A stretch of 64,000 bases of DNA from Candidatus Pelagibacter sp. (GTDB lineage: Bacteria > Pseudomonadota > Alphaproteobacteria > Pelagibacterales > Pelagibacteraceae): assembly GCF_052049995.1 (NCBI RefSeq), contig NZ_JBNGYX010000001.1, forward strand, positions 57,850 through 121,849. Direction: 5' to 3'. A program made the translations under genes and the position numbers. This document shows positions 36,794 to 56,158 of this stretch, piece after piece (within the stretch, counting starts at the first letter, position 1; each line of letters begins with the position of its first letter). A model generated the notes under the pieces. That model did no database searches and was not told the DNA's origin. It saw nothing but the letters and a program-made list of their open reading frames with translations.

Positions 36794-38275
36794 TTATCTT
36801 ATTGAGAAAGGGTCTAGAGAAGGTTCATCAGATGTATAGAACCAAGTTGTTTTTACCCGTGTGTAGTCTTTAACTGATTCAATTCCAGCCTCTTTTCCAT
36901 ACCCACTATCTTTAATTCCTCCAAATGGTGCAGATGGTGAAATTAATCTGTAAGTATTTACAAATGTTATACCTGCCCGGATAGCATTAGACACCCTCAT
37001 TCCTCTTGCGAGATCACTAGTATAAACACCTGAAGAAAGACCATATTGATTGTCGTTCATTAATTCAATTACCTCTTTTTCAGTGTCAAATTTCATTACT
37101 GATAATACAGGGCCAAAAAGCTCATTTTCAGCAGCCGGTAAATTATGATTTTCACACTCAATAATTGTTGGTGGAAAATAATAACCTTCATTTGAAAAAG
37201 GATGTCTTTTACCACCACATTTAATTTTTCCACCTTGTTCAACAGTTAATTTAATATTTTTTTCTATTACTTCTAATTGTTTAAAGTTACTTAAGGGACC
37301 CATTTCAGTATCAGAGTCCATTGGAGCACCTATTTTAATTTTTTCTGCTCTTGATGATAACTTATCTAAAAATTCGTTATAAATTCCTTTTTGTAAGTAC
37401 AACCTTGAACCTGCTATACAACTTTGACCACTTGCTCCAAATATTCCAGCAGTTATTCCATTAATTGCATTTTCTTGTTTAGCATCATCAAAAACAGCAA
37501 CAGGACTTTTGCCTCCTAATTCTAAACTTACCTCAGATAAATTTTCTGCAGAGTTTCTAATTATATGCCTTGCAGTTTCAGGGCCTCCTGTAAAAGCTAC
37601 TTTCTCAACTAAGTTGTGAGTAGTTAAAGCTTTACCACATGGATCTCCAAACCCAGAAACTACATTTACAACACCTTTTGGTATTCCAGTTTCTTCAACT
37701 AACTTTGCAAATTCAAACATAGTTGCTGGTGCTAGTTCAGAACATTTAATTACTACTGTATTACCCATAGCTAGAGCAGGAGCGACTTTTGTTGCAGTTA
37801 AAAACATTTGAGAATTCCAAGGAATGATAGCTGCAATAACACCTATTGGAATTCTTGTTGTGATCGCTTGAATATTTGGTTTATCTATTGGAAGAACTGT
37901 TCCTTCAACTTTGTCAGCTAAACCTGCATAGTAATCATAATATTCAGCAATGTATTTTGCTTGTTGATAAGTTTCTCTGTACAGTTTTCCTGTATCAATT
38001 GTTTCAATTTTTCCTAATAGTTCAGAATTTTCTCTAAGTTTATTTCCGATTGCTCTTAAATATTTTGCTCTATCTCTTGCAATCATCTTTGGCCATTCAC
38101 CTTCAAAAGCTTTTTGTGCAGCTTTTACAGCTCTATCAACATCATTTGCGCTAGCTTCAGGTACTATAGCCCAAGGCTTATTATTTTCTGGATTTAAAGT
38201 TTCAAAAGTTTTTTTTGTATCAGAGTCTACCCAGTGACCGTCTATAAACATTTGATATTTTTTTAATTCAGACAT
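36794..38275 (-). CDS. Aldehyde dehydrogenase, TgnC-like (trigonelline pathway dehydrogenase type)
   Basis: ALDH motifs ELGGKSP, GQSCIAGSR, ELFGPV. VAFTGGPETARHI.RNSAENL and the C-terminal SD.P..DPF..R match my recollection of Acinetobacter TgnC. Confidence 0.88.
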   Translation of the reverse strand: MSELKKYQMFIDGHWVDSDTKKTFETLNPENNKPWAIVPEASANDVDRAVKAAQKAFEGEWPKMIARDRAKYLRAIGNKLRENSELLGKIETIDTGKLYRETYQQAKYIAEYYDYYAGLADKVEGTVLPIDKPNIQAITTRIPIGVIAAIIPWNSQMFLTATKVAPALAMGNTVVIKCSELAPATMFEFAKLVEETGIPKGVVNVVSGFGDPCGKALTTHNLVEKVAFTGGPETARHIIRNSAENLSEVSLELGGKSPVAVFDDAKQENAINGITAGIFGASGQSCIAGSRLYLQKGIYNEFLDKLSSRAEKIKIGAPMDSDTEMGPLSNFKQLEVIEKNIKLTVEQGGKIKCGGKRHPFSNEGYYFPPTIIECENHNLPAAENELFGPVLSVMKFDTEKEVIELMNDNQYGLSSGVYTSDLARGMRVSNAIRAGITFVNTYRLISPSAPFGGIKDSGYGKEAGIESVKDYTRVKTTWFYTSDEPSLDPFSIR

Positions 38276-39053
38276 TATTTATATGTTTCATTATTGCATT
38301 ATTTACTTCGTCTGCATATTCAATACTGCATAAATGTTTTCCATTTTTAATTTCAACATATGTTGAATTTAGTATATCTTTATTTAAATTTTTTGACATA
38401 TCAGGCGTAGATCCTGGATCATCTGATCCTGTTATAATTAAGGTATTTGTTTTAATATTTTTTATATTTTCAAGATTGTCCTCATAGTTTGCAAATATTT
38501 CATAAGCTTTTATAAAATTTTCTTGATCAATTCCTTTCTTATTAAGAATTTTCATAAACTCATCGTATAATTCAGGGTTTTGCTCAAGGTACTCATCTGA
38601 AAACCATCTCTTCATTGCCATTTGAGATATTGGCATATTTTTTTTTGCTAAATTTACTCTATCAATTACATTTTGTCTTTCTTCAGCTGTCCTTTTGTAA
38701 GTAGTGGAAATTAGAGTTAAGGAATTTAAATAATTTTCATATTTTGAAGCAAATTCAATTGCAATCAAAGATCCGATAGAAAAGCCGATTAAATTAAATT
38801 TATCTATCTTTAGGTTATTTACTAAATTTGATAATTGATCAATAAAATTTTCCATTGATAAATTTGGTTCTTTAAAGGGTGTTTTTCCATGTCCTAACAG
38901 ATCGTAAGTTATAAATGAATTATCTTTAAAAAATTCAATTTGTGGTTTCCACATTTGCTGATTTAAACCAACCCCATGAATAAAAATTATTGGTAACGAA
39001 TTTTTATTATTAAAATAATAATGATTTTGATTGTTATCAAAATTGTAAGACAT
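38268..39053 (-). CDS. Alpha/beta hydrolase, TgnD-like
   Basis: IHGVG, nucleophile elbow GFSIG, YKRT..ER..VI.R, TGSDDPGST, catalytic His in GKHL; ATG 39053 (TTG 39056 in track). Confidence 0.85.
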   Translation of the reverse strand: MSYNFDNNQNHYYFNNKNSLPIIFIHGVGLNQQMWKPQIEFFKDNSFITYDLLGHGKTPFKEPNLSMENFIDQLSNLVNNLKIDKFNLIGFSIGSLIAIEFASKYENYLNSLTLISTTYKRTAEERQNVIDRVNLAKKNMPISQMAMKRWFSDEYLEQNPELYDEFMKILNKKGIDQENFIKAYEIFANYEDNLENIKNIKTNTLIITGSDDPGSTPDMSKNLNKDILNSTYVEIKNGKHLCSIEYADEVNNAIMKHINNV

Positions 39054-39056
39054 CAA

Positions 39057-39641
39057 TTATTTATCGATGCCCATCTCTTTCATGTCTTGATATCTGTCAC
39101 CTGTTCTTGCATGAGCTCGTCCGGTTGGAGCACCTCCAATAGCTACAACTATTTCATCTTCATTAGGGGCATCGTGAATTGTAAATTCATGCGTTAGATA
39201 AAAAGGTCTTAATCCAGCATCAGTTTTATGCATCATTGGAATTGAAATTTTTGCTCCCGCAGGGCCTCTAGTGTTAGTAAAACTTAAATAAGAAGTTCCA
39301 CCAACGGCATCTCTAAATTTATTTCCAAATCTTAAAGTATGAATAAATGCAGACGCATGTTCTATTTCACCGTTCAATCCAACCATCGCAGCTTTCCCAT
39401 AAGCTAAAATTTTTTCACCTGATCCAATTTCTTTTATTAACTCTGGCACCAAAAGATCTCCTAATTTAGGCGCAAGATCTAATATTTCTGGTTTTAAATC
39501 TTCTACAAAACCTTTTCCGGCCCAAGGATTTTCTATAACAGCTGCAACTGAAACTAACAAAACAGGCTCTTTAGCTTTTTTTCCACCCTCTATAAAAGTT
39601 TTATCTACAAATTTTGCAAATTTTCTAAGTTTTAAATCCAT
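39057..39641 (-). CDS. Amino acid synthesis family protein (DUF1185-like; TgnF-type accessory protein)
   Basis: AAVIENPWAG, YGKAAMVGLNGEIEHA, DAPNEDEIVVA, GRAHAR.GDR. Confidence 0.85.
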   Translation of the reverse strand: MDLKLRKFAKFVDKTFIEGGKKAKEPVLLVSVAAVIENPWAGKGFVEDLKPEILDLAPKLGDLLVPELIKEIGSGEKILAYGKAAMVGLNGEIEHASAFIHTLRFGNKFRDAVGGTSYLSFTNTRGPAGAKISIPMMHKTDAGLRPFYLTHEFTIHDAPNEDEIVVAIGGAPTGRAHARTGDRYQDMKEMGIDK

Positions 39642-39644
39642 TTA

Positions 39645-40811
39645 CTAGCTAGCTCTTTGAATGTTCGTATCTATCGGTTTTATATTTGGAATTACTTCTT
39701 CTGTAAATAATTTGATGCTTCTCATGCAGTCTTCGTGTTTAATTCCTGGAAAGTTAGACCAGACTTGTAAATTTTGAAGATTTAATTCTTGTTGAAGTTC
39801 TTTTATTTTTTCAATTACAAACTCAGGTGTTCCAAACAATAGATTTCTTTTATGAAGAAATTCATAATTTAATAAATCTAGTTTATTTTTTGTCTCTGGT
39901 AATTTTTCATCTGGATCCATATGATTTCCCAATCCTCTCCAATGACAAACCCATCTCATATAATTTACAATATGTTCTCCAGCCATTTTTTCAGCCTCTT
40001 CCATAGTTTCTGCAACAAACATATCTCTAACCAAACTAATACCTTCCCCTAGCGGTACATCTCTATTTTCAGCTTTAGATTTTGCATCTTTATAAATTTC
40101 AAATCTTTTTTTCAAAGCTTTTACAGTTGGTATCCACATAATTGTATTAAGCCCATTTTCTGCTGCCCACTGAATTGATCTTTCTCCATCAACTACTTGA
40201 GAAATTGGTGGAAAAGGTTTTTGATAAGGTTTTGGTAATACAGATATTTGTTTTAATTCATTTGTTTTTAAATCGACAACATTTTCTTTTGGAGGACTCA
40301 TATCGTGTTGCCAAATAAAATTTGGTGAGGGATAAGTATAGAATTCACCTTGGTGAGAAAAGAAGTCCTCAGACCAAGCTTTTTTCATTATGTCCAATGT
40401 TTCAGAAAATAGTCTAAAATTTTTTGCTTGATCTTTTAAGTCAGCTTCTTTGTTCATGTTAATGGCTTCTCTTCCGTAAACTCCTCTTCCAATACCAACT
40501 TCCACTCTTCCTTTTGACATTTGGTCAAGGGTAGCAATATCTTCTGCAAGTCTTATAGGATTATGAAATGTTATTACGTTGCAAGCTTGTCCTAAACGAA
40601 TATTTTTAGTTCTTGCAGCAGCATCAGTACACATCATTAGAGGATTAGTGCAAGACTCCATTCCCTCATGATTAAAATGGTGTTCGGTATACCAAATAGA
40701 ATTCCAATTATTTTGATCACAATATTCAGTGATTTCTCTAGCTTCGTCTAGAAGTTGGGTATAAGGTTTTTTATCCCAATTAGTAGTATTACAAAAATAT
40801 CCAAAGTTCAT
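39645..40811 (-). CDS. Luciferase-like (LLM class) flavin-dependent monooxygenase
   Basis: IWYTEHHF, NPLMM..DAAARTKNIRLG, PIRLAEDIATLDQMSKGRVEVGIGRG; ATG 40811 with SD GGAGG preferred over GTG 40853. Confidence 0.9.
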   Translation of the reverse strand: MNFGYFCNTTNWDKKPYTQLLDEAREITEYCDQNNWNSIWYTEHHFNHEGMESCTNPLMMCTDAAARTKNIRLGQACNVITFHNPIRLAEDIATLDQMSKGRVEVGIGRGVYGREAINMNKEADLKDQAKNFRLFSETLDIMKKAWSEDFFSHQGEFYTYPSPNFIWQHDMSPPKENVVDLKTNELKQISVLPKPYQKPFPPISQVVDGERSIQWAAENGLNTIMWIPTVKALKKRFEIYKDAKSKAENRDVPLGEGISLVRDMFVAETMEEAEKMAGEHIVNYMRWVCHWRGLGNHMDPDEKLPETKNKLDLLNYEFLHKRNLLFGTPEFVIEKIKELQQELNLQNLQVWSNFPGIKHEDCMRSIKLFTEEVIPNIKPIDTNIQRAS

Positions 40812-40892
40812 AAAGCCTCCTTTAAAAATTAATTTAAAGACGACCGATCCCACTTTCGTAAATTTTTGAATTTAACGACGAGTTATGTATCG
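40812..40892 (-). promoter_or_regulatory. Candidate structured 5' leader of the LLM operon
   Basis: Hairpin 40820-40839 (CTTTAAA/TTTAAAG) abuts the SD; second stem 40856-40878 (9 bp, one bulge); locally GC-richer patch. Confidence 0.35.
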
Positions 40893-42875: not shown

Positions 42876-43337
42876 TTATTTCTTTAATTTAGAAGAGAAT
42901 AGAAGACCTTCGCTTGAAAATTTTGACTTATTTTCTTCAATAAAATCTTTCATTAATTTTACTTTTTCTTCTTCAAATTCAGTAACCTTTCTTTTGCTTA
43001 AATCTATATATAGCGATATCCATTCCATAGAAGCTGAAGGTTTGTTAGTTTTTTGAGAAATCATTTCCATTTTTAAATGTAATCTTTTTTTATCATGATC
43101 AAAATAAGTCAGATTAACATTGACCATTTCTCCCTCTTTTACCTCATTTAAATATTTAGTATTAGTTTCAACAACCATTGTACTTCTATTAAGATTTTTT
43201 GCTGCTGTTCCACCCATTTTAAATTTTTCAAGAGCAACTTCCCATGCTTGATCAAAAACAAGCACATAATAAGCCATGTTCATATGATTGTTGTAATCAA
43301 CCCATTCCTTTTTTACTTCGAAAGTTTTTAATAACAC
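42876..43337 (-). CDS. Hot-dog fold acyl-CoA thioesterase (CdhB/carnitine-pathway-like)
   Basis: EWVDYNNHMNMAYY motif, YLNEV, YFDHDKKRLHL; GTG start 1 nt after the ATPase stop. Confidence 0.82.
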   Translation of the reverse strand: MLLKTFEVKKEWVDYNNHMNMAYYVLVFDQAWEVALEKFKMGGTAAKNLNRSTMVVETNTKYLNEVKEGEMVNVNLTYFDHDKKRLHLKMEMISQKTNKPSASMEWISLYIDLSKRKVTEFEEEKVKLMKDFIEENKSKFSSEGLLFSSKLKK

Positions 43338-43338
43338 T

Positions 43339-44364
43339 TTATGATCTTGTTAATGAAGACTGTAATTCTTGGTTTGAAATGTATCCTTTTACATTTCCAC
43401 TTTTATCAACCACTTCACAATTTGAGTCAGAACAAACAATTTTTGGTAAAAAATCTTCAATAAACTCATCTTCATTTACTTTTATTAAGTTTGATTTATC
43501 TATGTCATTAGCTTGATCAGCAGTTTTCATAATAATTTTTGCCTTGATGACTTTTGCTCTATTCACATCTTTTACAAAAGCTTTTACATAATCATCAGCA
43601 GGGTTCATAATAATTTCCTCAGGGGTTCCTACTTGGACTAATTTTCCAGAGTTTAATATCCCGATATGATCACCCAATCTTAATGATTCATCTAGATCGT
43701 GAGTAATAAATACAATTGTTTTTTTTAGTTCTGCTTGAAGATCAATTAGTTGTTTTTGCATGTCACTTCTAATCAGAGGATCTAGAGCACTGAAAGCCTC
43801 ATCCATTAACATGATATCTGTATCGGTAGCTAATGCTCTTGCTAAACCAACACGTTGCTGCATTCCTCCTGATAATTGAGCGGGGTATTGATTTTCAAAA
43901 CCAGTTAGACCAACTGCATCAATTTTTTCCATTGAGATTTTATTTCTTTCATCTTCACCTTTCCCTTGCATTTCTAGTCCGTATCCAACATTTTGAATTA
44001 CTGTTTTATGCGGGAATAAACCAAATCTTTGAAACACCATGCTCATTTTATGTCTTCTAAATTCAATAAGCTTATCTTTATCAAGTGACATTACATTCGT
44101 GCCCTCAACTAAAATTTCACCATCAGTTGGATCGATTAGTCTATTTAAATGTCTTATTAGTGTTGATTTTCCCGATCCAGATAAACCCATACAAACAAAG
44201 GTTTCTCCTTCTTCAATTTTAAGCGAAACATTATCTAATCCAACGGTATGACCAGTTTGCTCTAAAATTTCGTCTTTTGTTGCACCATCTTTTACCATTG
44301 GCAGTACAGAAGAAGGGTTGTTTCCAAAAATTTTGTAAACGTTGTTGATCTCAATTTTTGACAT
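43339..44364 (-). CDS. Glycine betaine/L-proline/carnitine ABC ATPase (ProV/OpuAA class)
   Basis: KIFG, MGLSGSGKST, SMVFQRFGLFPH, LSGGMQQRVGLARALA, MDEAFSALDPLIR, FITHDLDES. Confidence 0.92.
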   Translation of the reverse strand: MSKIEINNVYKIFGNNPSSVLPMVKDGATKDEILEQTGHTVGLDNVSLKIEEGETFVCMGLSGSGKSTLIRHLNRLIDPTDGEILVEGTNVMSLDKDKLIEFRRHKMSMVFQRFGLFPHKTVIQNVGYGLEMQGKGEDERNKISMEKIDAVGLTGFENQYPAQLSGGMQQRVGLARALATDTDIMLMDEAFSALDPLIRSDMQKQLIDLQAELKKTIVFITHDLDESLRLGDHIGILNSGKLVQVGTPEEIIMNPADDYVKAFVKDVNRAKVIKAKIIMKTADQANDIDKSNLIKVNEDEFIEDFLPKIVCSDSNCEVVDKSGNVKGYISNQELQSSLTRS

Positions 44365-44489
44365 GATGTAATGTTCTAACAGTTACAATCATCATATGTA
44401 AAACAAATATTATACAACTTATAATTGTTTTAAGAAATAACAGTTGTATTTATTTGCTTTTGCTTATTTTTTAAATAAGAATTTTATTT
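44365..44489. promoter_or_regulatory. Divergent promoter region with repeated motifs
   Basis: Direct repeat TAACAGTT at 44377 and 44438; inverted repeat ATACAACT (44412-44419) and AGTTGTAT (44442-44449). Confidence 0.45.
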
Positions 44490-45221
44490 ATGGCGCAAAC
44501 AGATAAAGATGTGCGACTAGAGTTGTCTGCTCTCTATAGAATTTTACATATGTACGGCATGACAGACCTTGCTAACCAATGTGCAGGGGCAAGATCTGCT
44601 GAAGATAAGAATTGTTCTTTTGTTCATCCATACGGAATGTTTTATGAGGAAATTACCGCTTCATCTTTAGTTAAAATTGATCAAAACGGAAAAAAATTAG
44701 ATTCAGACGGACCTTGGTTAAATGACGGATGCATTAATCTTGCTCAATGGATTTTTAATAAAAGAAATGATGTAAACTTTTATGTTCACGGACATGCCAA
44801 CGATGTGATGGCAGTTGGAGGTACTAAAGAAGGTTTAATGTATCTTTCACAGGCCGCAGTTTATTTAAATCATCTTGTTGGATATATTGATTATGAATTT
44901 GTTGAGGACAAAGAATTTGGAAGTAAATTTGAAAACCTAATTAGTAAACACGATATTTTGATTACTAGAAATCATGGATATTACACAGTAGGAAAAACTG
45001 CTGCAGAAGCATTTTTCAGAGCTTATTATCTAGAGCAAGCATGTTCAGTTCAGGTAAAAAACCTTGCCATGGGGTTAAACAAACATGAAATAGATAAACA
45101 GAAAGCTGCATATTTTTGGGAAAACATGAGCGACTCCGATGATTATAATTATGATGGAAAAACGGAGTGGGCTGCTTTATTAAGAAAACTAGAGAGAGAA
45201 CATTCAAATTATAAAAATTAA
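44490..45221 (+). CDS. Class II aldolase/adducin family protein
   Basis: PYGMFYEEITASSLVKID, metal ligands HGH and RNHG, AEAFFRAYYLEQACSVQ. Confidence 0.9.
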   Translation: MAQTDKDVRLELSALYRILHMYGMTDLANQCAGARSAEDKNCSFVHPYGMFYEEITASSLVKIDQNGKKLDSDGPWLNDGCINLAQWIFNKRNDVNFYVHGHANDVMAVGGTKEGLMYLSQAAVYLNHLVGYIDYEFVEDKEFGSKFENLISKHDILITRNHGYYTVGKTAAEAFFRAYYLEQACSVQVKNLAMGLNKHEIDKQKAAYFWENMSDSDDYNYDGKTEWAALLRKLEREHSNYKN

Positions 45222-46372
45222 TGGAACAAAATTTTACAATAAAAAATATAACTAAAAATTCTACAAATTTAGAAATTGACTGGAGTGATGGAAAAAAAAG
45301 TAAATTTAATTATTTATGGCTAAGAGACAATTGTCCAACTGCACATGACAAAGACTCACGTCATAGAATGTTTAATATTTTAAAAGTATCAAACAAAATT
45401 AATCCAAAAAAATTTGCAGTAAATAATGAAGGCAAGCTTGAAATTGAATGGAGTGAAGGTGACCATATAAGTTATTATGACCAAAATTGGTTAAGAGAAA
45501 ACTGCTATACTATAAAAAATAATTTAGATTATAAATCTCCATATCAACTTTGGGACAACTCTTTACAAAATGACCTGAAGTCAATTGAGATTGAACATGA
45601 TGAAATTATGAGTTCATATGAGGGACTTGTCAGATGGTTAGAGCTCTTACACCACACTGGAATTGCTATAGTAAAAAATGCTCCAACTGAAAATAATTCT
45701 GGCTTTAAAATTTTAAACAGAATCAGCCATACTAGAGAAACTTTTTTTAAAACACCTTTTGAAGTAATTAATATCCCTAAACCAAATAATTCTGCTTACA
45801 CAGCACATGCCCTAAGAAATCATATGGATTTACCATGGTTTGAAACACCACCTGGTTATCAATTTCTTCATTGTTTAGTTAATTCTGCAACAGGAGGAGA
45901 CTCATCCGCTGTAGATGGCTTTGCAGTTGCAGATTATTTAAGAAAAAATGAGAAAGAAATATTTGATACGCTAGTAAACGTTCATTTAAAATTTAGAGAC
46001 ATGGATTATACACAAGAGTCTGTTAGAAGTTATTACGCACCCGCGATATCTCTAACAAAAGATAATGATTACCATGATATTCGGTTTAGCGTAGCAACTA
46101 TGGATGCTTTAGATTGTCATCCTGATTTGATGGATAAAGTTTATAAAGCTCATCACCGATTTGGAAATTTACTTCATGACGATCAATTCCAGATTAAATT
46201 TAGATTAGGACCAGGTGATATTTTTTCTTTTAACAATAGACGATTATTACACGGTAGAACTGAATATGATCCAAACTCAGGACATAGACATTTGCAAGGT
46301 TATTACATGGATCGAGACGAAATTATTGGGAGACTAAGATATTTAAAAAATTCTGTTAACTCCAACCAGTAA
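45221..46372 (+). CDS. Gamma-butyrobetaine/trimethyllysine hydroxylase-like Fe(II)/2OG dioxygenase (DUF971 + TauD)
   Basis: IDWSDG, WLRDNC, WLREN, NSAYT..L..HMD, FLHC, GGDS..VDGF, FNNRRLLHGR, RHLQGYY. Confidence 0.9.
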   Translation: MEQNFTIKNITKNSTNLEIDWSDGKKSKFNYLWLRDNCPTAHDKDSRHRMFNILKVSNKINPKKFAVNNEGKLEIEWSEGDHISYYDQNWLRENCYTIKNNLDYKSPYQLWDNSLQNDLKSIEIEHDEIMSSYEGLVRWLELLHHTGIAIVKNAPTENNSGFKILNRISHTRETFFKTPFEVINIPKPNNSAYTAHALRNHMDLPWFETPPGYQFLHCLVNSATGGDSSAVDGFAVADYLRKNEKEIFDTLVNVHLKFRDMDYTQESVRSYYAPAISLTKDNDYHDIRFSVATMDALDCHPDLMDKVYKAHHRFGNLLHDDQFQIKFRLGPGDIFSFNNRRLLHGRTEYDPNSGHRHLQGYYMDRDEIIGRLRYLKNSVNSNQ

Positions 46373-47786
46373 CATTCTTTACTTCAAGATATTCCTCAAG
46401 ACCCCAAACACCTCCTTCTCTCCCATTACCTGATTGTCTGTAACCACCAAATGGAGTTCCGGAATCTGCTCCATTTCCATTTATGTAAACACATCCAGAT
46501 CTTAATTTTTTAGCAACTCTGTGTGCTTTTTCTCGGTCTTCAGTTTGCAAATAATTTCCAAGACCATAAGAAGTATCATTTACAATATTGACTGCCTCAT
46601 CTTCAGTCCCAAATGGAATTATAGATAATACAGGTCCAAAAATTTCCTCTTTAGCAATTCTCATTTCATTAGTTACATTTGTAAATATAGTTGGTTTGAT
46701 AAAGTATCCTTTGTTCAAACCGTTTGGTAACTCAGGTCCACCTGCTGCAAGAGTTGCGCCTTCAGAAATACCACTTTCAATAAGATTTATAATTTTCTCA
46801 TATTGAATTTTAGAAATTACTGGTCCTATATGATCTCCCTTTTTTGAAGCTTGATCTACTTTAATTTTGTTTGCTTCATCAACAGCTTCTTTAACAGCTC
46901 TATCGTAAATTGATTTTTCAACAAGCATCCTTGTTGGTGCATCACAAGATTGACCAGAATTGCTCATTACATTTCTAATACCGTCTCTTACTGCATCTTT
47001 ATAACTATCAGCAAAAACAATATTTCCACCTTTTCCACCTAATTCAAGACAAACTCTTTTAATTGTTTCAGCAGCATTTTTTGAAATTAATCTTCCTGCT
47101 CTTGTTGAACCTGTGAAAGAAACCATATCAATATCAGGGTGGGTTGAAATGTGGGTTCCCACTCCTGCGCCGTCTCCATTTACCAAATTAAATACACCTT
47201 TTGGAAAACCTACTTCATCAATCATTTCTGCAAATAGCATTCCAGAAATAGGAGCAATTTCTGATGGTTTTAAAATCATTGTACATCCAGTTGCGAATGC
47301 AGGAACGACTTTTAAAGTAATTTGATTAATAGGCCAATTCCACGGTGTGATTAATCCACAAACTCCAATTGGCTCATAATAGATATGATTATTTGATTTA
47401 TTATCAAAGTGTTCATCAAATTTAAAATTTTTTAATCTTAAAATAAAATCATCTAAATGATCTTTCCCTGAAGCTGTTTGAACATCTGTTGCCCAATCCA
47501 TTGGCGCACCCATTTCAAGAGAAATAGCCTCAGCCATTTCATTAAATCTTTTTTTATAAACTGATGATAATTTTTCAAGTAAACTGAGCCTTTCTTTCTT
47601 GCTAGTTTCTTTCCAAGTATTAAAGGCATTTTTTGCTGATTTGACAGCTAAATCTGTATCCTCTTTTGAACCTAAAGAAATAACAGCAAACGGATCTTCA
47701 TTGCATGGATTAATTACGTCAAAATCATTTTTTTTAATTGGATCAACCCACTGACCATTTATGTAAAATTTCCTTTTATCTAACAT
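46356..47786 (-). CDS. Aldehyde dehydrogenase family protein
   Basis: ITPWNWP, FTGSTRAG, ELGGKG, NSGQSCDAPTR, EEIFGPV; stop overlaps the dioxygenase stop region by 17 nt. Confidence 0.93.
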   Translation of the reverse strand: MLDKRKFYINGQWVDPIKKNDFDVINPCNEDPFAVISLGSKEDTDLAVKSAKNAFNTWKETSKKERLSLLEKLSSVYKKRFNEMAEAISLEMGAPMDWATDVQTASGKDHLDDFILRLKNFKFDEHFDNKSNNHIYYEPIGVCGLITPWNWPINQITLKVVPAFATGCTMILKPSEIAPISGMLFAEMIDEVGFPKGVFNLVNGDGAGVGTHISTHPDIDMVSFTGSTRAGRLISKNAAETIKRVCLELGGKGGNIVFADSYKDAVRDGIRNVMSNSGQSCDAPTRMLVEKSIYDRAVKEAVDEANKIKVDQASKKGDHIGPVISKIQYEKIINLIESGISEGATLAAGGPELPNGLNKGYFIKPTIFTNVTNEMRIAKEEIFGPVLSIIPFGTEDEAVNIVNDTSYGLGNYLQTEDREKAHRVAKKLRSGCVYINGNGADSGTPFGGYRQSGNGREGGVWGLEEYLEVKNVTGWS

Positions 47787-47806: not shown

Positions 47807-48748
47807 TTAAATTTCATATCCTTTTTCCTCAGGTTCGCTATCAACCAACTCATCAGGAAAACCATTAGCTCTAAAATTAATATTATTTAAATCCTCCATC
47901 CTTTTCACAATCATTGATGACCAAGCTCTAGAACCATATTTTTTTTGACCATCTTTGAAAATTTCAACTATTTGTGGAGAAATTTCTAAAAGAGCATTTA
48001 TTTTTTTAGCAAGATTATTAAATAAACTTGTGTCTTTTAAAACCAAATCCATTGTAAAGTTTATATTATAAGATCCATTTAATATAACCTGACTTTCAGT
48101 TTCATGCACAAATGAATTACCAGAGGAAATAGCAATCCCTTTATAAGTTTTTGCTAAATCTAAATTAGATTTTTTTGCTACAGTCCAAGCCTCACCTAAT
48201 GCAACTAAATGTGCAGATGCTAGATAATTTGTAATTACTTTTAATACACTTGCTGTACCAAGCTCACCAGTGTGCAATATTTTTCTCCCCATAACAATTA
48301 ATACAGGTAAAATTTTTTCAAATGCTTTTCTTTCTCCACCCACGAATATAGAAATATTACCTGTTGCTGCTCTATGACATCCGCCACTAACAGGTCCATC
48401 CATAGGTATAGCTTTTTTTTCTATTACTTTTTTTCCAATTCTTTTAACCTCATTTTCGTCTGTGGTACTCATTTCTAACCAAATTTTATTCTCTGACAGT
48501 CCATTTATAATTCCGTCATCAGCCTCCATCACTTCAGCGGATACTTCGGGGGAAGGAAGAGATGTAATTATTAAATCAGTTTTTTCTGCTAATTCTTTTG
48601 GCGATTTTGCTACCTTAGCACCTAAGTCTTTTAGAGGATTTGTTAAATTTTCATCTATATCTCTTACTGTAAGATCAAAGTTATTTCTTAATAAACTTCC
48701 AGCAAGTTTTCCTCCAACATTACCTAGACCAATAAATCCAATTTTCAT
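47807..48748 (-). CDS. NAD(P)-dependent beta-hydroxyacid dehydrogenase (3-hydroxyisobutyrate dehydrogenase family)
   Basis: GFIGLGNVG, DGPVSGG, catalytic Lys in LKVITNYL. Confidence 0.88.
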   Translation of the reverse strand: MKIGFIGLGNVGGKLAGSLLRNNFDLTVRDIDENLTNPLKDLGAKVAKSPKELAEKTDLIITSLPSPEVSAEVMEADDGIINGLSENKIWLEMSTTDENEVKRIGKKVIEKKAIPMDGPVSGGCHRAATGNISIFVGGERKAFEKILPVLIVMGRKILHTGELGTASVLKVITNYLASAHLVALGEAWTVAKKSNLDLAKTYKGIAISSGNSFVHETESQVILNGSYNINFTMDLVLKDTSLFNNLAKKINALLEISPQIVEIFKDGQKKYGSRAWSSMIVKRMEDLNNINFRANGFPDELVDSEPEEKGYEI

Positions 48749-49617
48749 TTTATTTCCTCTTCCTTTTTGTTTTTTTTAAATACAATTAAAATCACACCAA
48801 CTATGATTATTGTACCACCTATAAATAATTCTGAAGTTGGTTTTTCACCTAAAAGAAATATTGCTGCCAATAAACCGGTTGGTGGTATCCCCATAGTTAC
48901 AATCGGTAGAACTTTATAAAGTGGGTTATTTTTTAAAACATAATAGAAACAACCGTATGTAATTGGTTGCATGATGAAACCAATATAAATAGCAATAATC
49001 CAATGATTAAATTTTGCATTTGTTAGATAATTAATTGTATTTCCATCAATTATCGCAGATGACATTATTAATATCGGTCCAGAGAATAATGCTAACCAAG
49101 CAACTAACGCTAAAGGATTTATTTCTTTACTTAAAGGTTTAACCATAACTTGTCCAAGAGCCCATACAGCAGATCCTAAAATTGTAAGTCCAATTCCAAT
49201 AAATTTTCCATCCAAGTTAGGAGATCCAGTTAAAATATAAACACCAACAAATGCGATAGCTATACCAATCAAAGCTCTGATCGTTGGTTTTTCTTTAAGC
49301 ATGAAGTAAGCAAAAATGACTCCAAACGGAACTTCCATCTGAACCAAAAGAACTGCTGAAGATGCATCAATTAAATCTAAACCAGTATATGTAATGCTAT
49401 ATTGCAATGTATTAGCGACTAATGATGCAGCAAAAATTCTTTTTAAATATCCTCTTGGAATTGGAAACCACCAAATTAATAATGATGCAGCAAATGTAAA
49501 TCTGATACCCATTAAAAGAATAGGAGGAAAAGATTCAAATGCTGGTTTAGCTATTACAAAACCAAAGCCTAAAAATATAGGCACCAAGGATGCTACGAAA
49601 GTATCTTTTATATTCAT
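48745..49617 (-). CDS. EamA/DMT family transporter
   Basis: FPPILLMGIRF, VQMEVPF, LLGEKPT; about 10 TM. Confidence 0.88.
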   Translation of the reverse strand: MNIKDTFVASLVPIFLGFGFVIAKPAFESFPPILLMGIRFTFAASLLIWWFPIPRGYLKRIFAASLVANTLQYSITYTGLDLIDASSAVLLVQMEVPFGVIFAYFMLKEKPTIRALIGIAIAFVGVYILTGSPNLDGKFIGIGLTILGSAVWALGQVMVKPLSKEINPLALVAWLALFSGPILIMSSAIIDGNTINYLTNAKFNHWIIAIYIGFIMQPITYGCFYYVLKNNPLYKVLPIVTMGIPPTGLLAAIFLLGEKPTSELFIGGTIIIVGVILIVFKKNKKEEEIK

Positions 49618-49676: not shown

Positions 49677-50423
49677 ATGAATTCAACAAAAATAGATCCT
49701 AAATACATCACCAAATCAAATCCAAGAATTGGACTTATTGCGCTTGCAAGCGATTTTATGATTGAAAGAGATTTTATAAACGTAATTAAAGACAGAGAAG
49801 TTGATTTTTTTGTAAATCGTATTGAATGCTACAACCCGCTAACAAAAGAAAATTTGATCAAAATGTCAGACAAAGTAACTGAGGTAACAAAAGATATATT
49901 ACCTGATCAGGATATCGATTGTGTTGTTTATGGCTGTACCTCTGGAACAATAGCTGCAGGTTATGAGTCTATAGAGAAAAAAGTAAAAGCTGCAAAACCT
50001 ATGGCAGAGGTGACAACTCCAAGTACCGCTGCAATTAAAGCTTTAAAAAAGTTAAATATAAGTAAGATAAGTCTATTTACACCTTATAGCAAAAAACTTA
50101 ACGATGAAGTTTTGGAATATTTTAAAAATGAAGGGTTTGAAGTTACTTCAAATTCTTACTTTGATATAGAAGCTGATTACGATATCGGAAAAGTTGATCA
50201 GAATTATTTATTTAATGTTCTATCCGAAATAAATTTAAATGGAGCAGAGGCTCTCTTTGTTTCTTGTACTGCTTTACCAGTATTGCCAATTATTGATAAA
50301 TTAGAGAAAAAATTAAATACTACAGTTTTATCTAGCAATCAGGCTTTAATTTGGGATACGCTTGTTAAAATTAACAAAAATAATTCCGTCGAAGGATTTG
50401 GTAAATTATTTAATGAAAATTAA
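49677..50423 (+). CDS. eutA: Asp/Glu/hydantoin racemase-maleate isomerase family protein (ectoine utilisation EutA-like)
   Basis: RIGLIALASD, YGCTSG, FTPY, FVSCTAL, SSNQA; adjacent to doeA. Confidence 0.8.
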   Translation: MNSTKIDPKYITKSNPRIGLIALASDFMIERDFINVIKDREVDFFVNRIECYNPLTKENLIKMSDKVTEVTKDILPDQDIDCVVYGCTSGTIAAGYESIEKKVKAAKPMAEVTTPSTAAIKALKKLNISKISLFTPYSKKLNDEVLEYFKNEGFEVTSNSYFDIEADYDIGKVDQNYLFNVLSEINLNGAEALFVSCTALPVLPIIDKLEKKLNTTVLSSNQALIWDTLVKINKNNSVEGFGKLFNEN

Positions 50424-51592
50424 TGTTGTTCACAAAAGAAGAATATAAGCAAAGATTAACAAAAGTTAAAAAAATGATGCAAGAAAAAGGCATCGATCTT
50501 TTAATCTCACATGACACTAACAACATGAATTACCTAACAGGTTATGATGCTTGGTCTTTTTATTATGCTCAATGTGCAATTGTTCATATAGATGCAGACG
50601 AGCCTCTATGTTTTGTTAGGGCTCAAGATGCAGGTGGTGCATATATTAAAACTTATTTAAAGGATGAGAATATTTTAGTTTATGACGAAAATTATATCCA
50701 TACTTGGCCAAAACATCCTTATGATAATTTGGTAGAGATAATAAAAGAAAGAAAATGGGATAAGTTATGCATTGGATTAGAAATGGATGCGCATTACTTC
50801 ACTGCGTTTTGTTATGAAAAAATAAAGCAAGGATTACCTAATGCAAAAATCAAAGATAGCGATCGTTTAGTTAATTGGGTAAGGTTAGTAAAATCAAATG
50901 CTGAAATAGGTTTCATGAAATCTGCTGCAAAAATTTCTGAAAAAGGAATGAAAACTGCAATGGAGGTTATTAAACCAGGTGTCAGACAGTGCGATGCAGT
51001 TGGTGAAATTCAAAAAACTTTATTTTATGGAACAAAGGAATTTGGAGGTGAATATTCAAGTATTGCAACTTTACTTCCAACAGGAAAAGGTACTTCAGCT
51101 TCACATTTAACAGCAACACAAGACAAATTTGCAGAAGGTGAGGCTACAATTATTGAATTATCTGGTGTTTATAAGAGATATCATGCTCCGATGGCGAGAA
51201 CAATTTTGTTAGGAAAGCCTAATCAATTAAAGATTGATACAATGAATAAAACAATAGAGGCTTTAAATGCAGGTATAAGTCAAATTAAACCTGGGAATAC
51301 AGCAGATGATGTTGCACAAGCTTTTTGGAAAATATTAGATAAATATGGAATAGAAAAAAAATCTAGAACAGGCTATTCGATAGGAATTGGTTATCCTCCT
51401 GATTGGGGTGAACATACACTTAATATTTATAAGGGAGATATGACAATACTTGAGCCTAACGTTTGTTTTCATATGATAGCAGTGATGCAGTTTGGTGATT
51501 GGGGTGTTGAAGCATCTGAGGCAATAAGAGTTACAGAGAATGGATCAGAATTGTTCTGTAATTTTCCAAAAGAGCTTCATATTAAGAGTTAA
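50423..51592 (+). CDS. doeA: Ectoine hydrolase (M24 family; DoeA/EutD)
   Basis: FTKEEY..RL, LTGYDAWSFY, LPTG...SA.HLT, GVYKRYHAPMART, GYSIGIGYPPDWGE, as remembered for DoeA. Confidence 0.82.
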   Translation: MLFTKEEYKQRLTKVKKMMQEKGIDLLISHDTNNMNYLTGYDAWSFYYAQCAIVHIDADEPLCFVRAQDAGGAYIKTYLKDENILVYDENYIHTWPKHPYDNLVEIIKERKWDKLCIGLEMDAHYFTAFCYEKIKQGLPNAKIKDSDRLVNWVRLVKSNAEIGFMKSAAKISEKGMKTAMEVIKPGVRQCDAVGEIQKTLFYGTKEFGGEYSSIATLLPTGKGTSASHLTATQDKFAEGEATIIELSGVYKRYHAPMARTILLGKPNQLKIDTMNKTIEALNAGISQIKPGNTADDVAQAFWKILDKYGIEKKSRTGYSIGIGYPPDWGEHTLNIYKGDMTILEPNVCFHMIAVMQFGDWGVEASEAIRVTENGSELFCNFPKELHIKS

Positions 51593-51637
51593 TTAGCTAT
51601 TGAAATATATTTACACAAATGTTTTATATGCACCTTT

Positions 51638-52723
51638 ATGTCTAAAAATCCAGAATTTGTAAAATTCGATAAAGTAGATAAAAGTTACGACGGCAAAGTT
51701 CTTGTCGTTAAAGATCTTCAATTAGATATTGCAGAAGGCGAATTCATAACAATGCTTGGTCCATCTGGTTCAGGTAAAACAACGTGTCTAATGATGTTGG
51801 CTGGTTTTGAAACACCAACTCATGGTGAAATATTATTAGATGGAAATATAATTTCTAACATTCCTCCTCATAAAAGAGGTATTGGTATGGTTTTCCAAAA
51901 CTATGCATTGTTTCCACATATGACAGTTTATGAAAACTTAGCTTTTCCGTTAAGGGTAAGAAAAGTTGAAAAAGACGAAATAGATAAAAAAGTTGATAAA
52001 GCATTATCGATGGTTTCATTAAGTGGTTTTGAAACTAGAATGCCCGCTCAACTTTCTGGTGGTCAGCAACAAAGAGTAGCAGTTGCAAGAGCTTTGGTAT
52101 TTGATCCAGCAGTCGTATTAATGGATGAACCACTTGGAGCATTAGATAAAAATTTAAGAGAAAGCATGCAATATGAAATAAAACATATTCATGAAAGTAT
52201 TGGTGTAACAGTTGTATATGTAACTCATGATCAAAGTGAGGCATTAACCATGTCAAACCGAATTGCAGTATTTAATGATGGAAAAGTTCAACAGCTTTCA
52301 AATCCAGCTGAACTTTATGAGAAGCCAGTAAATTCTTTTGTTGCTGAGTTTATTGGTGAGAACAATACTTTCAATGGTGAAGTTGTGGATATCGATAAAG
52401 ATAAATGCAAAGTTAAATTAGCCAATTCAGAAATACTAGCCAATCCAATTTCTGTAAAGTCTAAAGGTGAGAAAACAACTGTTTCTTTAAGACCTGAAAG
52501 GGCGTTAATTAATCCGACTGATAAGATGGATAATATGTTTACTGGAAAGATTGAAGAAGTAATTTATCACGGTGATCATACAAGAGTTAGATTAAATCTT
52601 TTAGGAAGCTCAGAGTTTATTCTTAAAGTACCCAACAGCACATCCAATTTAGAGTTAAAAGTAAGTCAAGATATAAATATTGGCTGGAATAGTGTTGATG
52701 CTAGAGCATTAGACCCAAAATAA
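51638..52723 (+). CDS. potA: Pot-type ABC ATPase
   Basis: GPSGSGKTT, VFQNYALFPHM, LSGGQQQR, MDEPLGALD, C-terminal TOBE domain. Confidence 0.92.
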   Translation: MSKNPEFVKFDKVDKSYDGKVLVVKDLQLDIAEGEFITMLGPSGSGKTTCLMMLAGFETPTHGEILLDGNIISNIPPHKRGIGMVFQNYALFPHMTVYENLAFPLRVRKVEKDEIDKKVDKALSMVSLSGFETRMPAQLSGGQQQRVAVARALVFDPAVVLMDEPLGALDKNLRESMQYEIKHIHESIGVTVVYVTHDQSEALTMSNRIAVFNDGKVQQLSNPAELYEKPVNSFVAEFIGENNTFNGEVVDIDKDKCKVKLANSEILANPISVKSKGEKTTVSLRPERALINPTDKMDNMFTGKIEEVIYHGDHTRVRLNLLGSSEFILKVPNSTSNLELKVSQDINIGWNSVDARALDPK

Positions 52724-52777
52724 TCCTATTTAAAATATTTACATCTAATAGAAGTAACTACTGACAAAATCAGCTGT

Positions 52778-52843
52778 TGACTTAATCATTCCTATTTGTT
52801 GTACTTTTACTTATATAAATTAATTTATATCAACGTTTAAACG
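52778..52843 (+). promoter_or_regulatory. Putative internal promoter of the SBP gene with palindromes
   Basis: TTGACT at about 52778 with TACTTT downstream; palindromes ATATAAATTAATTTATAT (52813-52830) and CGTTTAAACG (52834-52843) run into SD GGAGG. Confidence 0.35.
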
Positions 52844-52851
52844 GAGGAATA

Positions 52852-53967
52852 ATGAGAAAAATAAGTAAATTATTACTAGCTCTTTCTTTTGTTGTGTCTC
52901 TAACATCTTCAGCCTTTGCTGTTACTGTAGCATCATGGGGTGGAGCTTATACAGAGTCTCAAAAGCTAGGGTATGGTGATCCAACTGCTAAAGCATTAGG
53001 AATAGAAATCAATTGGGTTGACTATTCTGGTGGTTTATCAGAGATCAAAGCACAGAAAGAAGCAGGTGCAATAACTTGGGATATCATAGATGTATTTGCA
53101 TTCGACACTATTAACGGATGTGACGAAGGAATATTTGTTAAATTTGATTTTGACAAAGATTTCCCAGCAGCACCAGATGGAACTAAAGCAAGTGAAGATT
53201 TCTTTGCACCAATGCCGAGTGAATGTGCTGTAGGTAACATTTTATATTCTTGGAACTATGCTTATAACAAAAACAATTTAAAAGGCACTCCAAAGACTAT
53301 TAAAGATTTCTTTAATACTAAAAAGTTTCCTGGAAAAAGAGCAATCTATAAAAGTGCTTTAACTAATTTAGAAATCGCTTTAGCTGCAGATGGTGTTAAG
53401 CTAGGTGACGGCGGAACTAGAGTTTACAGAAAACTTCTAGAAGACGGTGGAATCGACAGAGCGATGAATAAAATTAAAAAATTATGTACAGATCCTAATG
53501 GCGGATGTGTATTCTGGTCAGCAGGTGCTCAACCACCAGAACTTTTAATGAGTGGTGAAGTTGTAATGGCAACTGGTTGGAACGGAAGATTTTTTAACGC
53601 AATAGTTGGTGAAGGTGCACCACTTGTACAAGTATGGGATGGTCAAGGTCTTGATTATGAATACTTTGCACTAGTTAAAGGTGGACCAAACGAAGCTGAT
53701 GCTAAAAAAGCTCTTGCAATGATGACTAACACAGAAATGTTAGCTGGTAGTGCGAAGTATATTGCTTATGCACCATACAGAAAATCATCTCTTGATGTAA
53801 TTACTGCTGGTGAGCCTTGGTACAAAGATGGTAAAACTGAAATGATGCCACAAATGCCAACAGCTCCTGCAAACACTAAGAATTATTTCTTAGTAGACCC
53901 ATTCTTCTGGGCTGATAACAATACTGAAATCAGTGAGAAGTGGGAAGCAATGAAAGCAGGACTATAA
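52852..53967 (+). CDS. potD: PotD-family ABC substrate-binding protein (ligand possibly betaine-type osmolytes)
   Basis: Signal peptide, TVASWGGAY, WDIIDV, FPGKRA, GWNGR. Confidence 0.88.
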   Translation: MRKISKLLLALSFVVSLTSSAFAVTVASWGGAYTESQKLGYGDPTAKALGIEINWVDYSGGLSEIKAQKEAGAITWDIIDVFAFDTINGCDEGIFVKFDFDKDFPAAPDGTKASEDFFAPMPSECAVGNILYSWNYAYNKNNLKGTPKTIKDFFNTKKFPGKRAIYKSALTNLEIALAADGVKLGDGGTRVYRKLLEDGGIDRAMNKIKKLCTDPNGGCVFWSAGAQPPELLMSGEVVMATGWNGRFFNAIVGEGAPLVQVWDGQGLDYEYFALVKGGPNEADAKKALAMMTNTEMLAGSAKYIAYAPYRKSSLDVITAGEPWYKDGKTEMMPQMPTAPANTKNYFLVDPFFWADNNTEISEKWEAMKAGL

Positions 53968-54002
53968 TTTCAGTTTTAAACACTGAATTTATATAATATA
54001 TT

Positions 54003-54035
54003 TAGGGCGGTTATTTTTAACCGCCCTATTTTTTT
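54003..54035 (+). terminator. Intrinsic terminator-like hairpin after the SBP gene, ending at the permease ATG
   Basis: TAGGGCGGTTA-tttt-TAACCGCCCTA followed by T7. Confidence 0.85.
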
Positions 54036-55301: not shown

Positions 55302-55303
55302 TT

Positions 55304-56158
55304 ATGGCATTACCAAGTTATACAGAAACTAGATATAGAATTTGGCATTATATTTATCTTACGATTTGTACCTTTGTTTTTTTCTTTTTGATTGCACCTT
55401 TATTTGTAATTTTTCCTTTGTCATTTAATGCAGAAGAATTTTTAGTTTTTTCTGAAGGAATGAAAAATCTTGATCCAGATGCATTCTCTTTGAGATGGTA
55501 TAAAGATATGATTTATGGAACTAAAAATCCATGGGGACTAGCGGCAAAAAATAGCTTCATAATTGCAATATTTGCAACAATTGGATCAATTATTTTAGGT
55601 ACATTAGCTGCACTAGGACTCAGCAGTAGACATATGCCTTATAAAGGATTGATAATGGCGACCTTAATATCTCCAATGATTGTTCCATTAATTATATCAG
55701 GTGTTGCAATTTTCTTTTTTATGGCAAAAGCTGGTTTAGCAGCAACCCACACAGGAATAGTTTTAGCACATATTATATTAGGAACACCTTTTGTTGTTAT
55801 TACTGTAACAGCTACACTTTCAGGTTTTGATCATAGCGTAACAAGAGCTGCCGCAAGTTTGGGTAGTAACCCAGTTAACACATTTATGAAGATAACACTC
55901 CCTTTAATATTACCAGGAGTAATTTCTGGGGGATTATTTGCTTTTGTAACATCCTTTGATGAAGTTGTTGTGGTATTATTTCTAGCAGGATTAGAAAATA
56001 CAACTATCCCAATACAGATGTGGACTGGTTTGAGAGAACAACTAAGCCCTACAATTCTTGCAGTTGCAACTTGTTTAATTCTTTTATCTACCTTGATATT
56101 AATTAGTGCAGAGTTATTAAGAAGAAGATCTGAAAGATTAAGAGGAATAAATAGATAA
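55304..56158 (+). CDS. potC: Pot-type ABC permease (PotC class)
   Basis: FSLRWY, SPMIVP, AASLG, FVTSFDEVV. Confidence 0.9.
   Translation: MALPSYTETRYRIWHYIYLTICTFVFFFLIAPLFVIFPLSFNAEEFLVFSEGMKNLDPDAFSLRWYKDMIYGTKNPWGLAAKNSFIIAIFATIGSIILGTLAALGLSSRHMPYKGLIMATLISPMIVPLIISGVAIFFFMAKAGLAATHTGIVLAHIILGTPFVVITVTATLSGFDHSVTRAAASLGSNPVNTFMKITLPLILPGVISGGLFAFVTSFDEVVVVLFLAGLENTTIPIQMWTGLREQLSPTILAVATCLILLSTLILISAELLRRRSERLRGINR

Follow-up and report, generated by a model that had tools for sequence, protein, structure and literature searches.

A conserved pairing of a class II aldolase-fold gene with a gamma-butyrobetaine hydroxylase-type gene in Pelagibacter, and a possible two-step route to glycine betaine

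The window, a stretch of 64,000 nucleotides (nt), comes from a genome of Candidatus Pelagibacter sp. (SAR11 group; contig NZ_JBNGYX010000001.1 of assembly GCF_052049995.1, 1.31 Mb, 99.96% complete). It contains two overlapping genes on the forward strand, namely, an open reading frame (ORF) for a class II aldolase-fold protein of 243 amino acids (aa) at 44490-45221, and an ORF for an Fe(II)/2-oxoglutarate (2OG) dioxygenase of the gamma-butyrobetaine hydroxylase (GBBH) family of 383 aa at 45221-46372. The dioxygenase is probably an ordinary SAR11 butyrobetaine hydroxylase (BBOX), and the pair stands at a site where other Pelagibacter genomes carry the genes of coenzyme A (CoA)-dependent carnitine degradation. 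It is proposed that the pair hydroxylates a betaine and then cleaves it to glycine betaine in place of the CoA-dependent route. All chemical steps of this proposal are inferred, and it is offered tentatively, as a plausible reading that falls short of a probable one.

The first protein, of the adducin-like branch of its fold, matches Aldolase_II (PF00596, E 4.9e-29), and the second matches TauD (PF02668, E 4.7e-37) and GBBH-like_N (PF06155, E 7.7e-17). Their junction reads AAAAATTAATGGAAC, where the TAA stop and the ATG start have one base in common (TAATG). An aldehyde dehydrogenase (ALDH) gene on the reverse strand (46356-47786) is convergent on the pair and overlaps the 3' end of the dioxygenase gene by 17 nt. 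The initial annotation, made from the sequence of the window alone, had described a TAATG-linked two-gene unit converging on an ALDH, and the ORFs, the Pfam matches, and the junction confirm this layout. The order ATPase (reverse strand), aldolase (forward), and BBOX (forward) recurs in 79/79 Pelagibacter loci with a downstream flank, usually followed by ALDH and a HIBADH-family gene, both on the reverse strand. A stop/start overlap, either TAATG or TGATG, is found in 78 of the 80 SAR11 loci. Recurrence in every complete locus, together with the retained overlap, indicates that the arrangement is not due to chance. The aldolase gene is under strong purifying selection, with a dN/dS of ~0.06 against loci that are 82-90% identical at the protein level. 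By sequence, the aldolase and dioxygenase genes form a conserved unit that is predicted to be translationally coupled.

The dioxygenase was compared with three GBBH-family models. It reaches 314.9 bits on the BBOX model (TIGR02409, cut-off 414.75), 269 bits on the TmpA model, and 198.9 bits on the trimethyllysine dioxygenase (TMLD) model (TIGR02410, cut-off 268.3); all three scores lie below cut-off, and TMLD ranks third behind BBOX and TmpA. The dioxygenase is 75-82% identical to copies found in the SAR11 locus for carnitine dehydrogenase (CDH), BKACE, and thioesterase, including ~81% to the very common copy P0238. The neighbours of P0238 are an OpuAC-type ABC transporter, a short-chain dehydrogenase/reductase (SDR), CDH, BKACE, and thioesterase, with no aldolase; P0238 scores 318.9 bits on TIGR02409, much like the window dioxygenase, and behaves in the same way on all three models. 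Further BBOX orthologues lie inside carnitine-degradation clusters (L005, L135, L223-L230). The dioxygenase tree places all SAR11 copies together with the BKACE-linked BBOX of a high-GC contig, L175 (support 99/94), whereas the dioxygenases beside the aldolase in other bacteria form a large separate clade (99/95).

The iron triad H201/D203/H344 and the 2OG-binding R356 align to H202/D204/H347/R360 of human BBOX1. The putative aromatic cage F176/F180/Y193/Y362 corresponds to human Y177/W181/Y194/Y366, and human N191 is kept as Asn190, while human N292 is replaced by Ser290, with Arg288 nearby. In human BBOX1, Y177, W181, Y194, and Y366 form the cage for the trimethylammonium group, and N191 and N292 bind the carboxylate. 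In the Cys3His zinc site of the GBBH-like domain, Cys38 and the His are retained, and the positions of human C40 and C43 are occupied by Thr and Asp. All of the listed active-site positions are identical between the aldolase-linked and the CDH/BKACE-linked BBOX copies. On the grounds of orthology and gene context, the dioxygenase is therefore probably an ordinary SAR11 butyrobetaine hydroxylase. A role as trimethyllysine hydroxylase was considered and rejected, given the TMLD score of 199 bits against 315 for BBOX and an active site equal to that of the CDH/BKACE-linked BBOX. The same genome encodes a second GBBH-family paralogue (G000:C1:223680-224744; L137:9675-10778, reverse strand) with 33% identity, whose best match is the TmpA model (342 bits, cut-off 400), which suggests a trimethylaminoethylphosphonate-type hydroxylase.

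The aldolase-fold protein shares with FucA-type class II aldolases the PF00596 domain, the overall fold, and the HxH...H metal motif. H100 and H102 (HxH) and H162 (NHG) are invariant among 16 orthologues and align to FucA H92, H94, and H155. Unlike these ligands, the catalytic residues are not conserved. In the alignment with E. coli FucA, Glu73, which is catalytic and metal-binding, corresponds to Gln86 in the window (Q, K, or R in orthologues, and Gly in paralogues), and Tyr113, the catalytic residue from the neighbouring subunit, corresponds to a conserved Gln121. The phosphate binders N29, T43, G44, S71, and S72 are replaced by C31, Y48, G49, L84, and A85, respectively, with only the glycine retained. 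The initial annotation was thus right that HxH and NHG are kept and that the FucA-type Glu is absent. Judged by these residues, the protein belongs to the fold but is neither a FucA-type aldolase nor a sugar-phosphate enzyme. Its best NCBIfam match is the uncharacterised PRK07044 family (181 bits, cut-off 207), and weak matches to PhtC and OtnC are also found. The aldolase tree gives the orthogroup good support and sets it apart from SAR11 paralogues of 31-35% identity.

The AlphaFold2 (AF2) model of the protein has a pLDDT of 88 and a TM score of 0.72-0.73 to E. coli FucA structures. Its fold neighbours are, in order, the unassigned structure 3ocr; adducin heads; a fungal 'FucA', pyruvic oxime dioxygenase (POD), TqaM, and NovR; HMPD decarboxylase; and then sugar-phosphate enzymes. 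The decarboxylases YgbL and HMPDdc (2z7b) are among the fold-search matches. Foldseek E values are 2e-15 to 6e-14 for POD, TqaM, and NovR versus 3e-12 or weaker for E. coli FucA, which is a small margin, and a profile search gives the same order, with 56.7 bits for POD, 43 for NovR, and 40 for TqaM versus 30 for E. coli FucA. Across these small margins, the nearest enzymatic relatives in both fold and sequence appear to be the Fe(II)/O2 enzymes POD, TqaM, and NovR, which is a lead and not proof. A NovR/CloR-like oxygenase, named as an alternative in the initial annotation, fits these neighbours. TqaM binds its substrate through S72, G73, H74, N123, Q166, W271, and E275; their counterparts in the window protein may be N83 and Q121, both conserved, and E226 and W227, both invariant, which are no more than candidates. 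All three, POD, TqaM, and NovR, use Fe(II) and O2 and have a three-His site (PMC11841055, PMC13351049). TqaM removes the carboxyl group oxidatively from alpha-hydroxy-beta-ammonium acids that are formed by way of an Fe/2OG enzyme (PMC13351049).

The pair occupies one of two alternative gene sets at the same chromosomal site. Eight BKACE-type loci have the flanks of the window, with the luciferase-like monooxygenase (LLM), 2OG oxygenase, EamA, and thioesterase genes on one side and the ALDH, HIBADH, EamA, EutA, and DoeA genes on the other. The BKACE form (type B) has genes for BKACE, CDH, SDR, ATPase, permease, and OpuAC between thioesterase and BBOX, where the form of the window (type A) has those for the ATPase and the aldolase alone. 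Since the flanks are common to both forms, types A and B are two alleles of a single syntenic site. Some BKACE-type loci (L223, L227) are ATPase-only variants as well. The distribution of the alleles was determined in 62 species genomes of the genus, each at least 97% complete, 38 of which have BBOX. Sixteen of the 38 encode the aldolase orthologue without BKACE, 21 encode BKACE without the aldolase orthologue, none encodes both, and one genome, which is fragmented, encodes neither. BKACE and CDH are both absent from the genome of the window. Its single Rieske oxygenase is weakly GbcA-like (124 bits versus a cut-off of 670) and does not match the carnitine monooxygenase model.

ALDH does not belong to this exchange. 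In SAR11 the ALDH and HIBADH genes flank both alleles, and the Roseovarius homologue has next to it an ALDH with only 31% identity to that of the window. ALDH as a constant partner of the aldolase was therefore rejected.

The genome scan for aldolase relatives comprises only Pelagibacter loci, and the breadth of the family was drawn from metagenome contigs searched with a non-SAR11 alignment. A class-level search of other sampled Alphaproteobacteria found orthologues in only 4 of 400 genomes, too few for statistics. The non-SAR11 survey comprises 60 high-GC loci encoding aldolase orthologues of 48-61% identity. A GBBH-family dioxygenase directly adjoins the aldolase, on either side, in 34 of the 50 loci where this can be determined. 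The loci with both flanks, which also number 34, include 16 that have no GBBH-type partner. A GbdR-like regulator lies within 3.5 kb of the aldolase in 31/60 loci, and the best-scoring model for its Kiloniella representative is GbdR (197 bits). Beyond these two, the 60 loci share no recurrent neighbour family. Because no other neighbour is conserved, the aldolase and dioxygenase are suggested to be a self-contained module that feeds a common metabolite. Where the partner dioxygenase is missing, another oxygenase often adjoins, which is of the PhyH type in L172 and L176 and probably of the fatty-acid-hydroxylase type in L189-L191. Some aldolase loci have no informative partner (e.g., P0019 and P0053). 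In Kiloniella sp. b19 (L139:7814-11812), a GbdR-like regulator, a GBBH-family dioxygenase, and the aldolase (ATGA overlap) are followed by a 615-aa pyridoxal phosphate (PLP)-dependent decarboxylase, which matches the PLP-dependent aspartate 1-decarboxylase PanP best, though weakly.

In a second SAR11 genus, a 71% identical orthologue stands directly after a HalD-type Fe/2OG enzyme. There (G071, L129:6038-11873; also L221), the run consists of a Rieske oxygenase, an M24 peptidase-like protein, the HalD-like oxygenase, the aldolase, and GFA; it converges on an ALDH 60% identical to that of the window, and BBOX is on another contig. Other SAR11 genomes have a trio of a HalD-like Fe/2OG oxygenase (PF23169), an aldolase paralogue (31-35%), and an FrhB/FdhB-like protein of ~406 aa (L135:9097-12831; L134:7728-12327; L136; L138); L135 has it between BKACE and CDH. 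The pairing of a hydroxylase with an aldolase-fold enzyme in betaine-type contexts is a recurring theme, and the hydroxylases come from at least four families. The initial idea of a hydroxylate-and-cleave module is reasonable in this respect, since the orthologues stand beside SAR11 BBOX, beside a separate GBBH clade with a GbdR-like regulator, and beside HalD-, PhyH-, and probably fatty-acid-hydroxylase-type enzymes; the aldolase chemistry that went with it is not matched by the residues, as the FucA set is absent. It had also been stated that the idea would suffer if the dioxygenase were a plain butyrobetaine hydroxylase or if the genes seldom occurred together; the former is probably the case, and the latter clearly is not.

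In the proposed route, the dioxygenase would make L-carnitine from gamma-butyrobetaine, or hydroxylate a very close analogue, as its orthology suggests. The co-translated His-triad metalloenzyme would then act on the hydroxylated betaine and, to judge from gene context, cleave the chain next to the carbinol carbon, giving glycine betaine and a C2 fragment. This role is assigned to the aldolase-fold protein because type A lacks CDH and BKACE, the sole known fate of the BBOX product, and the aldolase gene stands there instead; the protein would replace CDH, BKACE, and the CoA cycle. The favoured chemistry is an oxidative cleavage of the C-C bond that depends on O2 and takes place on Fe(II), comparable to that of TqaM, NovR, or HEPD; carnitine and O2 would thereby yield glycine betaine and glycolate. 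It is favoured because the aldolase residues are missing and the neighbours in fold are oxygenases. A redox-neutral retro-aldol cleavage to betaine aldehyde and acetate, with the neighbouring ALDH finishing the conversion, is less likely. Glycine betaine would then enter the BHMT/DMGDH-type genes located ~70 kb away. BHMT-like and DMGDH-like genes are present in the same genome, which should therefore be able to demethylate glycine betaine. They form part of a second betaine/methyl-compound island (G000:C1:175601-185119; L232:5602-15120), beside an OpuAC/permease pair, which comprises the weakly GbcA-like Rieske oxygenase, the BHMT-like and DMGDH-like genes, and genes for an agmatinase-like protein, a DddP-like M24 protein, and a HalD-like oxygenase.

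Several known systems resemble parts of this route. Carnitine catabolism through GBBH, CDH, BKACE, and betainyl-CoA thioesterase shares with type A the same BBOX orthologue, the syntenic site, the flanking thioesterase, the ProV-type ATPase, ALDH, and HIBADH, and glycine betaine as the expected end product; type A differs in lacking CDH, BKACE, SDR, permease, and OpuAC and in having an aldolase-fold gene ahead of BBOX. TqaM of the fungal 2-aminoisobutyrate pathway (TqaL/TqaF/TqaM) and NovR/CloR share the class II aldolase fold and a His-triad metal site without the FucA Glu. TqaM also works downstream of an Fe/2OG oxygenase, on a hydroxy acid with an ammonium group next to the carbinol carbon, from which it excises carbon oxidatively. 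However, TqaM and NovR are only 18-22% identical to the window protein, and TqaM serves fungal biosynthesis, whereas bacterial catabolism would be concerned here. In TmpA/TmpB and PhnY*/PhnZ, hydroxylation is followed by oxidative bond cleavage to glycine betaine or glycine. As in the proposed route, the first enzyme is of the GBBH family (the TmpA model is the one matched with 269 bits), hydroxylation beta to the nitrogen readies the next bond, and glycine betaine is expected; in contrast, their second enzyme is an HD-domain mixed-valent diiron oxygenase that cleaves a C-P bond, whereas the PF00596 protein would cleave a C-C bond. An Arctic SAR11 genomic island is listed with BBOX, class II aldolase, thioesterase, CDH, BKACE, ALDH, HADH, a betaine ABC transporter, and GDPD (PMC12421898). 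In that island, unlike type A, the aldolase is listed between BKACE and the thioesterase, and no function is proposed for it; it is probably the 31-35% paralogue that is found between BKACE and CDH. A literature search on the pair found this gene combination in the Arctic island study alone, without an assigned function (PMC12421898). The coupling of BBOX to the aldolase-fold enzyme in genomes without the known genes of carnitine breakdown points to a two-step route, so far undescribed, from carnitine-type compounds to glycine betaine.

A number of observations weigh against the proposed route. Carnitine is a beta-hydroxy acid, whereas the substrates of TqaM and NovR are alpha-hydroxy or alpha-keto acids, and the gap between oxygenases and aldolases in the fold-search scores is small. 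The BBOX tree contains only two to three switches between types A and B, and the two are allelic forms, so their exclusivity is statistically weak; it is real, yet it does not have many independent events behind it. ALDH and HIBADH, being common to both alleles, are not specific to the aldolase allele. Two high-GC metagenome contigs (L175:945-8588 and L179) carry the aldolase directly beside a BBOX-SDR-BKACE-CDH set and an Opp/Dpp-type ABC transporter, and L175 has in addition a dioxygenase of the separate clade. Because both sets occur in these contigs, the aldolase module and the classical carnitine route can coexist and are not always alternatives. Finally, the native substrate of the aldolase may be a shorter betaine and not carnitine, because the usual non-SAR11 partner belongs to a different dioxygenase clade, which has an extra Arg motif (LRAP) near the Arg site of the TmpA-like paralogue.

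This last point leads to an unlikely alternative, in which hydroxylation followed by cleavage would hold but the substrate would differ; TqaM offers a precedent for it in both chemistry and type of substrate (PMC13351049). The aldolase-fold protein would be a TqaM-like oxidative decarboxylase of alpha-hydroxy acids, and the pair would shorten a betaine by one carbon, or the enzyme would act before BBOX; for example, beta-alanine betaine would be converted to 2-hydroxy-3-trimethylammoniopropionate and then to glycine betaine and CO2. It presupposes a SAR11 BBOX promiscuous enough to supply the alpha-hydroxy acid. The fold neighbours agree with such an enzyme, the extra Arg of the non-SAR11 partner clade would fit a shorter acid, a self-contained module with a GbdR-like regulator would suit it, and TmpA/TmpB offers a parallel, as it makes glycine betaine from a two-carbon phosphonate. 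However, the SAR11 partner is a BBOX orthologue with the active site of the copy that serves CDH and BKACE, C2 hydroxylation of shorter betaines by BBOX is an assumption, and the fate of any carnitine formed in type A cells would still be unexplained. Somewhat less credence is given to the absence of any metabolic coupling, in which type A is a reduced carnitine locus, BBOX only makes carnitine, e.g., as an osmolyte or cryoprotectant, and the aldolase-fold protein is unrelated and merely on the same transcript. The loss, in comparison with type B, of CDH, BKACE, SDR, permease, and binding protein is consistent with this, as are the non-SAR11 loci without a GBBH-type partner (16/34) and uninformative contexts such as P0019 and P0053. 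On the other side stand the overlap kept in 78/80 loci, the dN/dS of ~0.06, and the pairing of the aldolase with hydroxylases of four or more families in several arrangements; in addition, streamlined SAR11 genomes rarely retain idle genes.

The protein might also be a beta-keto acid decarboxylase like OtnC, HMPDdc, or PhtC, as the presence of HMPDdc 2z7b and YgbL in the fold search and the weak NCBIfam matches to PhtC and OtnC would allow. A dehydrogenase such as the nearby HIBADH-family enzyme would oxidise carnitine to 3-dehydrocarnitine, which would then be converted to trimethylaminoacetone. This is improbable. Trimethylaminoacetone has no evident onward route, the HIBADH gene is present in both alleles, 3-dehydrocarnitine loses CO2 spontaneously, and the constant pairing with hydroxylases, not dehydrogenases, would be left unexplained. 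The least likely explanation is the trimethyllysine route of the initial annotation, in which the dioxygenase hydroxylates trimethyllysine, the aldolase releases glycine and trimethylaminobutyraldehyde from 3-hydroxy-trimethyllysine, and ALDH forms butyrobetaine. The set of enzyme families is like that of eukaryotic carnitine synthesis, ALDH is adjacent, and SAR11 needs glycine. However, the dioxygenase is the BBOX orthologue of the carnitine-degradation locus, with 199 bits on TMLD, below both the cut-off of 268 and the 315 bits of BBOX, and with an active site identical to that of the CDH/BKACE-linked copy. The known enzymes that cleave beta-hydroxy-alpha-amino acids depend on PLP, and here even the FucA catalytic residues are missing; ALDH is not specific to the aldolase allele, and the resulting butyrobetaine or carnitine would have no downstream route.

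A 125-nt divergent intergenic region (44365-44489) separates the pair from the ATPase operon. No Rfam family, sigma-70-like site, or terminator rose above background in this region or in the surroundings of the pair, and no riboswitch or other RNA element, promoter, or terminator was found around the pair. Upstream and divergent are genes for a ProV/ChoV-type ABC ATPase, a 4HBT_2 thioesterase, an EamA transporter, and an IPNS-type 2OG oxygenase. The ATPase (43339-44364, reverse strand; TIGR03415 383 bits, TIGR01186 366 bits) has no permease or binding-protein gene next to it. It shares 90% identity with the type B ATPase that belongs to a complete OpuAC transporter, and it is a constant neighbour, found in every SAR11 locus with an available upstream flank. 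An OpuAC binding protein and permease are encoded ~70 kb away (G000:C1:173392-175318), with no ATPase match in the flanks examined, and this distant pair may function jointly with the ProV-type ATPase of the window. The thioesterase (42876-43337, reverse strand; PF13279) is a homologue of the carnitine-cluster thioesterase and aligns with the C-terminal portion of the carnitine 3-dehydrogenase model PRK07531. Most type A loci keep it, whereas L121-L123 and L194-L201 show no match.

On the other side, the convergent reverse-strand run consists of ALDH (PF00171), whose best model is betaine-aldehyde dehydrogenase TIGR01804 (427 bits versus a cut-off of 669), followed by a HIBADH-family beta-hydroxyacid dehydrogenase (47807-48748; PF03446 and PF14833) and, as the last gene of the run, an EamA-family transporter (48745-49617; PF00892). 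Further out, the operon at 36794-40853 (reverse strand), which encodes the luciferase-like monooxygenase, DUF1185 (AA_synth), an alpha/beta hydrolase, and an ALDH, flanks both alleles. Forward-strand genes at 49677-56158 include EutA-like and DoeA-like genes (the latter of the ectoine hydrolase family, below cut-off) and then a Pot-type ABC importer; further ectoine catabolic genes were not seen near them.

SAR11, the most abundant heterotrophic bacterial group of the ocean, has to be supplied with glycine or glycine betaine from outside, and quaternary amines are a major currency within the dissolved organic nitrogen of the sea. If the proposed route is true, the conversion of butyrobetaine or carnitine to glycine betaine without CDH, BKACE, or CoA would be a new catabolic route. 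An uncharacterised branch of the class II aldolase fold that is widespread would gain a function, and the roughly 4 in 10 BBOX-carrying Pelagibacter species that have no known carnitine genes would be explained. Either allele is carried by several cultured strains of the HIMB collection, so the idea is directly testable; HIMB123, HIMB1485, and HIMB1506 are examples of type A. More speculatively, and with low confidence, the aldolase-fold protein may represent a new functional class, an Fe(II)/O2 'hydroxy-betaine oxygenase' that cleaves the C-C bond by the carbinol carbon of carnitine-type compounds to yield glycine betaine and glycolate. It would work in a CoA-free two-gene cassette with any hydroxylase that supplies the alcohol, both in a considerable share of SAR11 cells and, under GbdR-type control and paired with other hydroxylases, in many marine Alphaproteobacteria.

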